The position numbers and the translations under genes were made by a program. A stretch of DNA of 59,413 nucleotides from an uncultured Candidatus Saccharibacteria bacterium (lineage in GTDB: Bacteria > Patescibacteriota > Saccharimonadia > UBA4664 > CAZJNH01): NCBI GenBank assembly GCA_964547425.1, contig CAZJNH010000003.1:1-59413 (forward strand), read 5' to 3'. Below the pieces are notes generated by a model, which saw only the letters and a program-made list of their open reading frames with translations, searched no databases and was not told where the DNA came from. Position 1 is the first letter of the stretch; each line of letters opens with the position of its first letter. This document shows, one piece after another, positions 10,910-57,552 of the stretch.

Positions 10910-10986
10910 GGGTCCTTAGCTCATTTGGTTAGAGCGCTTCCTTGACGTGGAAGAGGTGACTGGTTCGAATCCAGTAGGACCCACCA
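10910..10986 (+). tRNA. tRNA-Val (anticodon GAC), CCA encoded
   Basis: Acceptor stem GGGTCCT/AGGACCC, anticodon stem CTTCC/GGAAG with loop TTGACGT, T-arm ACTGG-TTCGAAT-CCAGT, 3' ACCA. Confidence 0.93.
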
Positions 10987-10989
10987 TTC

Positions 10990-11065
10990 GGACCTGTGGC
11001 TCAGCGGTTAGAGCACTGCATTCACATTGCAGGGGTCGTTGGTTCGAATCCAACCAGGTCCACCA
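10990..11065 (+). tRNA. tRNA-Val (anticodon CAC), CCA encoded
   Basis: Acceptor stem GGACCTG/CAGGTCC, anticodon stem CTGCA/TGCAG with loop TTCACAT, T-arm GTTGG-TTCGAAT-CCAAC, 3' ACCA. Confidence 0.93.
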
Positions 11066-25196: not shown

Positions 25197-25272
25197 TGGT
25201 CGGGGTGACAGGGCTCGAACCTGCGACCTCACGGCCCCCAGCCGTACGCGCTACCAACTGCGCTACACCCCG
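25197..25272 (-). tRNA. tRNA-Pro (anticodon GGG), CCA encoded
   Basis: On the reverse complement: acceptor CGGGGTG/CACCCCG, anticodon stem TACGG/CCGTG with loop CTGGGGG (G37), T-arm GCAGG-TTCGAGC-CCTGT, 3' ACCA. Confidence 0.92.
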
Positions 25273-25750: not shown

Positions 25751-26128
25751 CCTGCCAGATTGCTGAATGGCTGCCCGCCTCAGGCGGGAGGAAAGTCCGG
25801 ACAGCATAGAGCAAGGACGGTTGCTAACGGCAACCGAACGGCATCGGCCACTATTTCTCTCGAGAAAATAGGGACTGATGGAAGTTTAGGGAAAGTGCCA
25901 CAGAAACGAAACCGCTCGCCTTTGGCGAGTAAGGGTGAAACGAGTGCGGTAAGAGCGCACAGCGTCGCTAGGTGACTAGCGAAGAAGGTAAACCCCGTCC
26001 GCTGCAAGGCGATTGACCTATTGGGCTGCTCGCTACGGTCAATGATTAGCCGCTCGAGCCAGTTGGCAACAGCTGGCCTAGATAGATAGCCATTTAAACA
26101 GAATCCGGCTTATAGGCAATCTGGCAGG
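25751..26128 (+). ncRNA. rnpB: RNase P RNA, bacterial type A
   Basis: P1 pairs CCTGCCAGATTGC (25751-) with GCAATCTGGCAGG (-26128). P4 strands are 'GGGAGGAAAGTCCGGAC' and 'ACAGAATCCGGCTTATA'. 'AAGGGTGAAACGAGTGCGGTAAGAGCGCACAG' is also present. A TATACA -10 ends 7 nt upstream. Confidence 0.95.
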
Positions 26129-35196: not shown

Positions 35197-35979
35197 ATGG
35201 ATGAACAGTTAATTAAAGCCGTTGAAGATCTCGGCCTCTCCCAAAAGGAGGCCCGGGTTTACATGGCCAACTTGGCACTCGGTCCGGCCACCGTCCAGCA
35301 AATCGCTGACCGGTCGGGCATTAAGCGGGTGACCACCTACGTAATCTTGGAATCATTGGCCAACCTAGGCTTAGTCAGCCAAACAAGTCAGGGCAAAAAG
35401 ACTTTCTTTAACGCCGAAGACCCGGTCAGCTTACGCCGCCTGCTCGACAAAAAGGATCAGGAGATCAAGGAGCAGAAGCAAAACTTCGAGGATATACTGC
35501 CAGAACTGAAGACCCTGAAGAGTTTGCCTAAGGAAGCTCCGGGCGTGAAATTCTACGACACCCCCGGCGGAATTAAATCGATAGTAGCTTCGTTCTACGA
35601 AGCCCATCCGGACGCGAGAGAGGCTATTGGCATCAGTAACCTCACTCAGCTTTATAATTTTTTCCCGGAATTCGAGGCCGCTAACGCTAACCCTCAGCGA
35701 ACCAGAGCCAGAGTTAAGAGCCGGATTATCTATACCCACAAGAAAGGGCCGGTCCTAAAGGACACCGACAAGGCGATGAGCCGCGTCTCACGCTTCGTGC
35801 CTTACGACAAGTTTCCTTTCAACGGCGATTGGAACGTGATCGGCAATCATATTGTGATCCTCTCCTTAAGTGGAGTTAAGCCGATCGGAATTACCATCGA
35901 CAGCGAAGAGCTGGCCAGGGGCATGGAGGTTATTTTTAGCCTAGCTTGGGAAGCGGCCCAGCAATATAACCCAAAATAG
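35197..35979 (+). CDS. TrmB-family transcriptional regulator
   Basis: 'LGLSQKEARVYMANLALGPATVQQIADRSGIKRVTTYVILESLANLGLV' (TrmB wHTH) plus a C-terminal effector-like domain. Confidence 0.75.
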   Translation: MDEQLIKAVEDLGLSQKEARVYMANLALGPATVQQIADRSGIKRVTTYVILESLANLGLVSQTSQGKKTFFNAEDPVSLRRLLDKKDQEIKEQKQNFEDILPELKTLKSLPKEAPGVKFYDTPGGIKSIVASFYEAHPDAREAIGISNLTQLYNFFPEFEAANANPQRTRARVKSRIIYTHKKGPVLKDTDKAMSRVSRFVPYDKFPFNGDWNVIGNHIVILSLSGVKPIGITIDSEELARGMEVIFSLAWEAAQQYNPK

Positions 35980-36017
35980 CTTCCAGATTTACGTCAGATT
36001 TGTTAGCGGTTAATACA

Positions 36018-36046
36018 TTGACGATTTAGCCGCCAACTGTTAGAAT
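36018..36046 (+). promoter_or_regulatory. near-consensus sigma70 promoter with no downstream ORF
   Basis: TTGACG(36018-36023)-17 nt-TAGAAT(36041-36046). Confidence 0.65.
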
Positions 36047-36052
36047 TTCTTC

Positions 36053-36432
36053 GCTCGCGCACCCTGCCGGGCCGGCAGTCTTCTGGCTATTTTGCTTCTC
36101 AGAAGAGCCTGCTGAAGCGTTGGTTGTATGTAAGGAGGCAGGTGTGAACACTTGGTAACGGCTGCGGCCGTGCAAGTAGTACCCCTGCCGGTGGCGATCC
36201 GGATGTAACAATGGTCGCTATAGGCAGGGCGTGTGCGTCCTTCGCTCCGATCACACGCCCGGAGCGGGGACAAAAAAGGGTTCAGCCGAGAGGGGAAGGA
36301 GTTCTAACGCAGACGCGTTGGAACGGGGGTCTCCTCGTAGCTCAAGCTCCGGCGAATAGCTATCGCCAAAGGGGGAACCCTGTTACAAACTGAGGGTCGG
36401 GTGTCTTCAAGAGCCCGGCCCTCTGCCTTTTT
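36053..36432 (+). ncRNA. candidate structured non-coding RNA of unknown family (~380 nt)
   Basis: Framed by the promoter at 36018-36046 and the terminator at 36392-36432. Only R/G/A-rich ORFs of <=77 aa occur, and none has an RBS. Stems are dense: 36301-36324 (10 bp), 36183-89/36223-29, the long-range pair 36278-83/36375-80, and a possible pseudoknot 36229-35/36252-58 with 36243-49/36260-66. I found no RNase P, tmRNA, SRP or 6S signature. Confidence 0.55.
36392..36432 (+). terminator. intrinsic terminator oriented for the + strand
   Basis: GAGGGTCGGG(36392-36401)/CCCGGCCCTC(36414-36423), a 10-bp stem followed by TGCCTTTTT. The convergent galT-like gene stops at 36435. Confidence 0.75.
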
Positions 36433-36434
36433 AT

Positions 36435-37391
36435 CTAGCCTTTTTTATACCAATCAGCGGCGGTTTCGGGCGGAACGGGGTTGATGACAACGCCGGTCGA
36501 GAGCTCCAAGCCGCCCCATACGTTGGGCCGCGGTTCGACTTTTAAAATAAAGTGGTGGTCTTGTCCTGCCAAAGAGTCCTGCAAAAAGAAATTAAAGCTA
36601 ATCCCGTACTTATCCAGTTGTTTGGCCACAATTCGTAATATCTCCGCGAAGGACTTGAGTTCGCCGCTTCCCAGGTCACAAAAGCTTGGCTGGTGCTGCT
36701 TAGGTATTATCCAAACCCCATAAGGCGCGGTCCCGGCGTAGGGACAGATAGCCTGTAGGTGGTCGTCTTCATAGATGACCCGCTCATTTTGCTGTTTTTC
36801 CCAAGCCAGGATGTCGCAAACCGGGCAGGCTCCGTGGCGCATGCGGTACTGCTCAAAGGCGATAGCTTCGGTCTCGACTATGGGCGGCACTAGAGGCAGG
36901 GCGACGATTTGAGAGTGGGCATGGGCGATGGTGGCACCGGCTTTTGGCCCGTCGTTTTTAAATACGGCGACGTAGGCGATGCCTTCGATTTTGCGCAGCG
37001 CTTCGGCGCGCGTCGTGTAGGTTTTAAAGATTTGTCCGATGTGCTCGAGAGACAGCTGGGAGAACTCCTGATTGTGGTGGGGGGTTTCGATGACGATCTC
37101 CTGTTTGCCGAACGCCTGCGGGCTGTCGAGGGAGAGGGCCGGAAACAGGTTGTCGATGACTTTGACCTGCCAATCTCCATTGCCATCCTTGATCTGGAAA
37201 ATAGCCGGTTCGCTCTCGATCGCCGGACTGGCGGCGGTTTCTGAGCTGTGGGTTTCGGGATTGGCAAAAGCATCGGGCCGTTTGCCGCGCTTTGGGGCAA
37301 TAATCACGTAGCGGTCGAGAAAATAATGCTTCCGGATCTCGCCGCCTTCGGTTGAAGTTATAGTGTCGAATTTTGGCTCGGTTTTAGCCAT
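36435..37391 (-). CDS. galactose-1-phosphate uridylyltransferase-like (GalT/HIT superfamily) nucleotidyltransferase
   Basis: 'HAHSQIVALP' (His-x-His-x-Gln active site). The C-terminal half 'HLQAICPYAGTAPYGVWIIPKQH' parallels E. coli GalT. The start is set at the internal ATG 37391. Confidence 0.78.
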   Translation of the reverse strand: MAKTEPKFDTITSTEGGEIRKHYFLDRYVIIAPKRGKRPDAFANPETHSSETAASPAIESEPAIFQIKDGNGDWQVKVIDNLFPALSLDSPQAFGKQEIVIETPHHNQEFSQLSLEHIGQIFKTYTTRAEALRKIEGIAYVAVFKNDGPKAGATIAHAHSQIVALPLVPPIVETEAIAFEQYRMRHGACPVCDILAWEKQQNERVIYEDDHLQAICPYAGTAPYGVWIIPKQHQPSFCDLGSGELKSFAEILRIVAKQLDKYGISFNFFLQDSLAGQDHHFILKVEPRPNVWGGLELSTGVVINPVPPETAADWYKKG

Positions 37392-37454
37392 GGCTATCTG
37401 GAGTAAGCGTAACAGCTTTGCCCTGATTTGGCGAGTTACGGCAAGCAACCTAAA

Positions 37455-42307: not shown

Positions 42308-42650
42308 TGGTGGAGCTGCGGGGATTTGCACCCCGGTCCGCGAGATAACGAATCAGGCTTCTACAAGCTTAGCTGGTCTAGATGTTTCTTTTCCAACCGG
42401 CCTCAAAATCAGCAAAACAACCGTTTGGAGCAGCCAGTCATCTTAGCCTTGGCGACTAGGCTGGTGCCAAGGAGCGTTCAGATAAATGTCGTCGTTTAAT
42501 CCTATCTGAGTCAGGTTAATGACGGCTTTCGAACTTAAGCGAAAGCGGGAACTAGACTAGTGTTGTCAGTTCTTTTGGGTTGCCTATAACGGTGGCCACC
42601 GGCTTGCAGCACTGATCTGTCAAAGTCCCACGTCGAAGCTGATCAGCCCC
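42308..42650 (-). ncRNA. ssrA: tmRNA (transfer-messenger RNA)
   Basis: The minus strand begins 'GGGGCTGATCAGCTTCGACGTGGGA' and ends 'CGGACCGGGGTGCAAATCCCCGCAGCTCCACCA'. The acceptor stem GGGGCUG/CAGCUCC carries the G3:U identity pair. A candidate tag frame ends '...DNTSLVPAFA' with UAA in a hairpin loop. Confidence 0.93.
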
Positions 42651-57476: not shown

Positions 57477-57552
57477 TGGTCGGGGTGGCGGGACTCGAAC
57501 CCACGGCCTCAGCAACCCGAATGCTGCGCGCTACCAACTGCGCCACACCCCG
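57477..57552 (-). tRNA. tRNA-Pro (anticodon CGG), CCA encoded
   Basis: On the reverse complement: acceptor CGGGGTG/CACCCCG, anticodon stem CAGCA/TGCTG with loop TTCGGGT, T-arm GTGGG-TTCGAGT-CCCGC, 3' ACCA. Confidence 0.92.

Follow-up and report, generated by a model that had tools for sequence, protein, structure and literature searches.

A candidate family of large structured RNAs with a Shine–Dalgarno-led mini-ORF downstream of a trmB-like gene in Saccharimonadales

What is encoded in the 455-nt gap between a trmB-like gene and a convergent galT-like gene of an uncultured Candidatus Saccharibacteria bacterium? The gap occupies positions 35980-36434 of a stretch of 59,413 nt (contig CAZJNH010000003.1, hereafter the window), and an original prediction made from the sequence alone had placed in it a large and highly structured noncoding RNA (ncRNA), free of open reading frames (ORFs) and equipped with its own promoter and terminator. 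Saccharibacteria and other bacteria of the Candidate Phyla Radiation (CPR) have tiny genomes and few known regulators, and according to a transcriptome paper on the oral isolate TM7x, a Saccharibacterium, no small RNAs have been validated in it (bioRxiv 10.1101/2022.03.25.485537). Our analysis, computational throughout, leads us to favor, tentatively and with slightly less than even confidence, a reading in which the gap encodes, as a gene of its own, a structured RNA of ~380 nt, the representative of a new family, which would engage ribosomes through a mini-ORF and could switch between two folds. The RNA is probably better described as structured and ribosome-engaging than as a pure ncRNA. 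What stands of the novel large ncRNA originally proposed is a predicted large structured RNA that belongs to no Rfam family and whose proposed pseudoknot recurs in related genomes; what falls is the claim that it lacks an ORF and a Shine–Dalgarno (SD) site.

The predicted transcription unit and its homologs

The gap lies where the original prediction put it and is indeed rich in G+C, at 59% against 53% for the whole window. A sigma-70-type promoter, TTGACG-17-TAGAAT with an upstream TG, is present on the plus strand at 36018..36046 (10/12 consensus matches; −35 TTGACG at 36018-36023, −10 TAGAAT at 36041-36046, spacer of 17 nt). As a search of 1.5 kb found two promoter-like sites where 1.1 were expected, a single site is not significant alone; an equivalent promoter, of the form TTGAC(T/G/C)-N17-18-TAnnnT, lies at the same place in each of the 26 loci examined, some 35-60 nt past the stop codon of the trmB-like gene. 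At the other end of the unit, an intrinsic terminator (36392..36432, plus strand) consists of a GC-rich stem of 10-11 bp, a loop of 10-12 nt and then UGCCUUUUU. The stem pairs GAGGGTCGGG (36392-401) with CCCGGCCCTC (36414-23) and is followed by TGCCTTTTT, ending at 36432. A consensus scan missed this terminator (loop >8 nt), and a separate purpose-made scan recovered it; strong terminators are present wherever a contig includes the 3′ end of the RNA. Both the near-consensus promoter and the 10-bp GC hairpin with its U-tract had been foreseen, and the presence and conservation of the two motifs are in keeping with the earlier idea of an independent transcription unit. Their positions define a predicted plus-strand transcript of ~380 nt (36053..36432), whose start would fall 6-8 nt after the −10 box and whose end would be the U-tract.

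The terminator has a further peculiarity. Its 12-nt loop, YGUCnnnAAGAG (36402-36413 in the window), is kept in the window and in homologous loci L001, L002, and L069, and the stems covary; in L070, the string GAAGAGCYCGG forms the terminator 5′ arm rather than the loop. This conservation hints at a role for the terminator beyond termination.

The body of the predicted RNA is strongly structured. On the plus strand, the window copy has a minimum free energy (MFE) of −176.8 kcal/mol against a dinucleotide-shuffle mean of −150.5 (z −4.6; range −4.6 to −5.0), and its minus strand gives a folding z of −3.4. Across 25 homologs, mean folding z is −7.0 on the plus strand and −5.6 on the minus strand, with the plus strand the more stable in 19/25; all 25 tested regions fold far better than shuffles, z ranging from −3 to −12.8. 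The stems that the original prediction listed are all found in place. Two 5′ hairpins (36064..36106, plus strand) pair CTGCC 36064-68 with GGCAG 36074-78 and TCTTCTG 36079-85 with CAGAAGA 36100-06. A hairpin that we call HA (36183..36229, plus strand) is formed by CCCTGCC 36183-89 and GGCAGGG 36223-29, enclosing GGCGATC 36193-99 and GGTCGCT 36213-19. The 3′ domain (36278..36380, plus strand) is, in the MFE fold, a three-way junction closed by GGGTTC 36278-83 and GAACCC 36375-80, with a hairpin whose arms are at 36301-10 and 36315-24. In L002 and L069, this domain has two hairpins and a similar closure with different closing-helix sequences; its size differs by clade, and the total length of the RNA runs from 377 to 799 nt. 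With more than 300 nt, a kept multi-helix architecture, variable helices and no conserved protein, the element has the characters of the large structured bacterial ncRNA class.

Homologous loci were fetched from metagenomes and assemblies via TrmB-like homologs, and because every homolog was reached through the neighboring trmB-like gene, sampling accounts for part of the linkage to trmB. The nearest genome match is an uncultured Candidatus Saccharibacteria metagenome-assembled genome (L001), with a TrmB 72% identical. The gene order is conserved as comM-like (minus strand), trmB-like (plus strand), the gap, and a convergent gene (minus strand); in the window, the gap is flanked by the gene for a TrmB-like helix–turn–helix regulator (35197-35979, plus strand, Pfam PF01978) and a GalT/HIT-like gene (36435-37448, minus strand, convergent with the RNA gene), and across lineages the downstream gene may be galT-like, monogalactosyldiacylglycerol (MGDG)-synthase-like or another glycosyltransferase. 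An RNA element downstream of the TrmB-like gene, at the same locus and on the same strand, occurs in at least 27 Saccharimonadales lineages, and the gap measures ~430-870 nt in 26 loci (window, L001-6, L011-14, L023, L025-29, L069, L070, L072, L073, L076-79, and L081). The members keep one order, namely promoter, 5′ element, SD and start codon, HA, a pseudoknot of two stems (S1 and S2), variable 3′ domain and terminator, while the primary sequence is nearly unalignable: outside the promoter, the terminator and a handful of short blocks nothing matches between members, whose flanking proteins share 50-75% identity. On a TrmB neighbor-joining tree, the basal lineages are without the element, its absence from one inner clade looks like a loss, and its position is stable and vertically consistent. 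Since a gene of 380-800 nt has been kept at one locus while neighboring proteins are only ~50% identical, it is probably important to its host organisms.

Several loci lie outside this core set. In L007-10, L015, L017, L018, and L032-34, no more than 12-51 nt separate the trmB-like gene from the galT-like one, and the RNA gene is absent at the junction. In lineage P0090 (1.19-Mb contig), the corresponding gap measures 766 nt. A lineage represented by more than 25 contigs (L083:2284-2783, also L084-L086) shows the same architecture; its ORF, MVGFLDLRGSGLLT, has 14 codons and terminates within HA, and its downstream gene is a different glycosyltransferase.

No known family accounts for the RNA. 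The 4227 models of Rfam 15, which cover tmRNA, RNase P, the signal recognition particle (SRP), 6S, OLE, GOLLD, ROOL, HEARO, raiA, riboswitches, and ribozymes, gave no family match at gathering threshold in 35900-36550, and a permissive scan (E<=10) of the same interval returned chance-level scores of 13-16 bits only, from eukaryotic or archaeal families. Among homologous loci, 20 contained no family at gathering level, and neither did L001 in a permissive scan. ARAGORN found no tRNA- or tmRNA-like gene in 35900-36500, and a search of the full-text literature returned no description of such an RNA. Phage and plasmid collections held no similarity to the RNA element, and we rejected a phage or plasmid origin on that ground. 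The original prediction had seen no SRP, 6S, or common riboswitch signatures and had proposed a covariance-model scan against Rfam; the scan bears out the former and assigns no known family to the locus. The RNA family is found neither in Rfam nor in the searched literature.

Mini-ORF, pseudoknot, and contested hub

The original prediction maintained that the gap held no credible ORF and that the ORFs present lacked an SD. This proved wrong, as AAGGAGG (36132..36138, plus strand) is followed 5 nt later by the four-codon mini-ORF GTG AAC ACT TGG TAA (M-N-T-W-stop; 36144..36158, plus strand), an arrangement conserved in the family, and the start that it serves has the best anti-SD hybridization in the first 230 nt (−10.1 kcal/mol). 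In all homologs, an SD-like run of purines precedes an AUG or GUG by 4-10 nt, at a point 45-135 nt from the predicted 5′ end of the RNA. Counting the start, the ORF linked to this SD is 3-4 codons long in 17/24 annotated members (8-48 in the others), against a background of 12% for the other start codons of the same RNAs (binomial p 3.9e-11). An objective rule, which takes the start codon with the best anti-SD hybridization in the first 230 nt and was applied alongside 40 shuffle sets, selects a 3-4-codon ORF in 13/26 sequences, where the shuffle sets average 3.3 and never exceed 8; the SD energies are also much stronger, at −8.3 kcal/mol versus −5.3 in shuffles. The peptides differ in every lineage (MNTW, MSI, MCGV, MTH, MNT, MNS, MGGG, MCGG, MVS, MLT, MAH, MSA, MQT, MSS, MAL, MGT, and MSQ), both AUG and GUG occur as starts, and all three stop codons, UGA, UAA, and UAG, are used (UGA in 12/17). 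Because the SD, the start and the early stop are kept while the peptide sequence is free, ribosome loading appears to be part of the design.

The longer ORFs, of 8-48 codons, end just before or inside HA, the next helix. Those of 29-48 codons, in L011, L023, L025, L027, and L029, are SD-linked and end at or in HA, and the 12-codon (L026) and 34-codon (L029) ORFs terminate within the HA 5′ arm; the frame stays open through each of the five expanded start-to-HA regions. Between the stop and HA lie 9-35 nt in the case of mini-ORFs and 14-49 nt in that of 8-codon ORFs. The long ORFs look like lineage-specific extensions and not an ancestral function, because on the TrmB tree they fall within clades of mini-ORF members, none of the longer peptides matches Pfam, and the L023 peptide, the one tested, has no relative among 5.8 billion proteins except P0121, a copy of 98% identity. 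The long peptides are basic, not hydrophobic. Open frames in the window gap reach up to 81 codons and are not conserved at the protein level, and tblastx across homologs gave no frame-specific protein conservation, so that a hidden protein gene is not supported. Examining homologs for a small ORF, as the original prediction had suggested, has a divided outcome: a conserved SD and short ORF came to light, against an ORF-less RNA, and the longer frames lack protein-level conservation, in agreement with it. A separate observation concerns the sister lineages L011 (L011:3281-3759) and L023 (L023:3266-3765), whose RNA genes share 95.5% identity over their last 157 nt, whereas blastn aligns nothing in the first ~265 nt, which comprise the 5′ domain and the ORFs of 37 and 43 codons. 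The contrast points to a recombination breakpoint inside the RNA gene or to hypervariability of its 5′ half.

Downstream of the ORF, the 3′ arm of HA and the 5′ arm of S1 are contiguous, and the 5′ arm of S2 sits in the loop of S1. In the window, a position-constrained search places S1 (36227..36260, plus strand) as GGGCGTGTG (36227-35) paired with CACACGCCC (36252-60) and S2 (36240..36269, plus strand), interleaved with S1, as CTTCGCTCCG (36240-49) paired with CGGAGCGGGG (36260-69); the cores are CGTGTG 36230-35/CACACG 36252-57 and GCTCCG 36244-49/CGGAGC 36260-65, respectively. With the 5′ arm of the second helix inside the loop of the first, the window sequence has the arrangement of an H-type pseudoknot, which the original prediction had offered as a possibility; both helices are there, and the topology was recovered in 18/24 homologs. 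An unconstrained pseudoknot search gave high-scoring false combinations in these GC-rich RNAs and was replaced by the constrained search with shuffles, which required HA to start −20 to +60 nt from the stop, S1 to abut or overlap the HA 3′ arm, and S2 to be interleaved. It beat 60/60 dinucleotide shuffles in 18/24 sequences (lowest attainable p 0.016), for a Fisher combined p of 5e-15 that is limited by the floor on individual p-values, and it recovered the manually annotated helices in 16/17 sequences. From an unguided MAFFT alignment of 18 HA regions, RNAalifold predicted a 7-bp HA outer stem with compensatory changes at three pairs and few broken pairs, HA often reading CCCUGCC...GGCAGGG. 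Across 17 homologs, the 5′ arms of HA, S1, and S2 each occur in 17 different sequences with pairing kept. Near-identical strain copies (window vs L082; L073 vs L074 and L075) contain no informative compensatory SNPs, and a comparison of L083-86, made for another purpose, has one variable column only.

The HA 3′ arm and the S1 5′ arm together form a strand, GGCAGGGCGUGUG (36223..36235, plus strand), that we term the hub. It has three competing partners: the HA 5′ arm, the S1 3′ arm, and a 5′ element upstream of the SD. The 5′ element, UCGCGCACCCUGCCG (36055..36069, plus strand), is complementary to the hub, with an RNAduplex energy of −23.4 kcal/mol (z −3.85 vs shuffled 5′ regions). In the family, 5′ element:hub duplexes span 10-15 bp, cross the HA/S1 junction, and reach p<=0.05 against shuffled 5′ regions in 15/17 members (z −1.9 to −5.6); the duplex holds in the long-ORF locus L029 as well. 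When extended to its maximum, the S1 helix reaches 2-7 nt into HA in 17/19 homologs. The 5′ element itself varies, for example CUGGCAGGCCUCG in L005, UACAGGCGGGGC in L012, and CCAAGCGGGGUCCU in L001, and 5′ element and hub sequences differ between members with complementarity kept, which amounts to three-way covariation. Because the hub strand is complementary to these other segments, modeling predicts two mutually exclusive folds of similar stability, the pseudoknot and a long-range helix that encloses the SD and the ORF. When each was forced, ensemble energies came within ~3.4 kcal/mol of one another in 12/17 members, S2 not counted. In the predicted pseudoknot state, the local 5′ hairpins sequester the 5′ element.

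Two other features were seen in the window RNA. The SD-start region GGCAGGUGUG (36137-36149) is a near copy of the hub, and with a third CCUGC copy at ~36107-36111 the RNA has three C-rich and three G-rich copies of one pairing module. In the full-length MFE fold, the SD region AAGGAGGCAG (36132-36141) pairs with the post-terminator tail CUGCCUUUUU (36423-36432), a possible 5′-3′ closure that would mask the SD in the window.

Competing explanations

If the gene does encode a ribosome-engaging RNA, as we tentatively favor, ribosomes would be loaded at the SD and would translate the mini-ORF. Given that the peptide sequence is not conserved, the peptide would not be the point, and ribosome occupancy would be what matters. 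Occupancy could protect the RNA from 5′ decay or bias the hub between the two folds, either of which would link the state of the RNA to the translational capacity of the cell, and the folded 3′ body might serve in protein binding, target pairing, or particle assembly. A more elaborate version would have an abundant, Saccharibacteria-specific, "ribosome-gated" stand-alone RNA, whose mini-ORF only loads and releases ribosomes while the hub toggles and the 3′ body relays translational capacity. This version we regard as doubtful, and we know of no described bacterial RNA family that works as a ribosome-gated hub-switch RNA. The family would offer a system in which to study the coupling between ribosome loading and RNA folding in a setting other than classical attenuation.

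Several results weigh against the ribosome-engaging reading. Many of the predicted folds place part of the SD and start codon in base pairs. Predicted SD accessibility is equal between the two folds (p 0.16), so that a difference in SD sequestration between them is not supported, and with a stop-to-HA spacer of 9-35 nt the 5′ element and HA lie mostly outside the footprint of a ribosome on the mini-ORF; together, these two points leave the coupling of ribosome and fold without direct support. On the structural side, the helices were annotated by complementarity, which makes per-pair covariation counts partly circular, and the S1/S2 alignment was anchored on helices that we had defined, plain MAFFT having aligned only the promoter, HA arms, and terminator with S1 and S2 out of register. 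Independent structural support thus consists of the shuffle tests (5′ element:hub, and the HA/S1/S2 search) and RNAalifold on the MAFFT alignment. Two covariance models, R1 from six loop-pruned cores and R2 from the real sequences of the same six, found only their own six seeds at E <= 0.01; their best matches otherwise, L070, L076, L006, and L001, were at the correct place and strand with E 0.19-5.8. As the models do not generalize, homology rests on synteny and architecture rather than on a significant RNA-model match. The comparison of homologs that the original prediction had recommended thus finds the architecture kept, and its covariance models significantly recover seeds only. Such families can escape sequence-driven covariance-model searches because only their architecture survives.

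How do other explanations fare against the same evidence? The partial pairing of the SD and start codon, and the fact that the mini-ORF often forms hairpins with downstream sequence, would be expected if this were a purely noncoding structured RNA in which the SD and the "AUG...stop" are hairpin parts or a passive 30S-binding 5′ stabilizer, with ribosomes functionally uninvolved. The unconserved peptides, the equal SD accessibility in both folds, and the UGA found in 12/17 stops, as expected of a G-rich RNA, also fit. However, an in-frame stop at 3-4 codons in 17/24 members is about six times background and involves three stop codons, SD-start spacing and strength are like those of real start sites, and where the early stop is missing the frame is open for 8-48 codons up to HA, which together make this explanation unlikely in our view. 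The opposite emphasis, on coding, would make the transcript a small-peptide mRNA with a long structured 3′ untranslated region (UTR), whose 29-48-codon forms are functional and whose four-codon form in the window is a remnant or an RNA-only derivative. It can draw on the five loci with SD-linked ORFs of 29-48 codons, on the 14 codons of the L083 lineage, and on the five out of five expanded regions that stay open in frame. Yet the long-ORF forms, nested as they are in mini-ORF clades, look derived; their peptides have neither a Pfam match nor, for L023, relatives beyond P0121; decay would lose the SD and start and scatter stops randomly rather than at codon 3-4; and the RNA body is extremely structured in mini-ORF members too. 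We consider such an mRNA improbable.

A strong promoter aimed at a convergent gene in every locus, together with a leader-peptide-like ORF and alternative helices, raises the thought of an antisense or transcription-interference device against the galT-like gene, in which a mini-ORF leader controls terminator read-through. Here, the complementarity analysis is unfavorable: upstream complement to the terminator 5′ arm, as an antiterminator, did not exceed chance (mean z +0.18), and terminator/antiterminator switching was rejected on this result. As the terminators are also strong wherever the 3′ end is on the contig and the downstream gene differs between lineages, this device is very improbable. 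The presence or absence of the gap between the same two genes, and a long-range 5′ element with alternative folds that recalls hok, would suit a type I toxin–antitoxin-like or selfish inserted element with 5′ fold-back silencing of a small ORF; but the window ORF has four codons, the long peptides are not of the hydrophobic kind, the element contains no antisense promoter (the only minus-strand promoter-like site, 36572-36544, is inside galT), phage and plasmid records show no similarity, and the position follows the TrmB tree. We give this idea scarcely any credence. That the gap is a nonfunctional GC-rich spacer with stems by chance has next to no probability: barely conserved primary sequence and covariance models that do not generalize would be consistent with it, but promoter, SD-ORF, HA, pseudoknot, and terminator recur in one order across at least 27 lineages with flanking proteins 50-75% identical, and both the folding z-scores (−3 to −12.8) and the pseudoknot shuffle tests contradict it. 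A CsrB-like sponge was likewise dismissed, since six GGA motifs, counted by eye, are about what composition predicts by our own estimate.

Comparison with known systems

The window contains well-known structured RNAs at other positions, and the original prediction was right that RNase P RNA and tmRNA are accounted for there. Rfam 15 at gathering thresholds places a class A RNase P RNA at 25755-26128 (plus strand, 254.7 bits) and tmRNA at 42308-42650 (minus strand, 106.3 bits), and Rfam also finds four tRNA genes (10910-11062, 25200-25272, and 57480-57552). The RNA of the gap resembles tmRNA in being a structured RNA of a few hundred nucleotides in which a very short frame leads into a helix that contains or adjoins its stop codon, with pseudoknots beyond, and by analogy it may share with tmRNA an interaction with ribosomes. 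However, it is without a tRNA-like domain by both ARAGORN and Rfam and ends in an intrinsic terminator, and its ORF has its own SD and start codon (AAGGAGG, GTG), whereas the tag ORF of tmRNA has neither.

Dual-function RNAs such as Staphylococcus aureus RNAIII/hld, Bacillus subtilis SR1/SR1P, and Escherichia coli SgrS/SgrT encode conserved, functional peptides of 26-43 aa. Our RNA would resemble them if it is a discrete structured transcript, as its conserved promoter and terminator motifs predict, and it has a small SD-led ORF like theirs, but the ORF of its family usually has 3-4 codons of free sequence and encodes no conserved small protein. The hok-type type I toxin mRNAs, of ~400 nt, have a 5′ element that competes for long-range pairing and switches the fold. 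A similar length and a competing 5′ element invite an analogy with them, although in the gap neither a toxin-sized hydrophobic ORF nor an antisense RNA gene was found. In leader-peptide attenuators (trp, erm, and cat), a short SD-led ORF adjoins mutually exclusive helices. The gap RNA is predicted to have this combination, but the next gene is convergent, with no co-directional gene and no antiterminator/terminator alternative, and the alternative helices of the family lie mostly outside the ribosome footprint.

Ribosome occupancy as such has precedents. In lambda bar minigenes and the cryIIIA STAB-SD, a strong SD with a 2-4-codon ORF or none exerts its effect through occupancy; these are short elements within mRNAs or phage transcripts, in contrast to a conserved, pseudoknotted RNA of 380-800 nt. 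The proposed protection from decay would resemble the SD-type 5′ stabilizers of Gram-positive bacteria.

The closest company is that of OLE, GOLLD, ROOL, HEARO, and the raiA motif, large bacterial RNAs whose functions are unknown or have only recently come under study, with which the RNA shares its size, strong structure, lineage restriction, and discovery through intergenic GC content and structure, even though the Rfam models of none of them match. None of these RNAs is known to us to carry a conserved SD-led mini-ORF, and to our knowledge no pseudoknotted RNA with both a conserved SD-led ORF of three codons and a hub strand contested by three partners has been described before. Judged by its sequence features, the RNA fits only this loose class of large lineage-specific structured bacterial RNAs, to which it adds, as distinguishing predicted features, the conserved SD-led ORF of 3-4 codons and the three-way contested hub.

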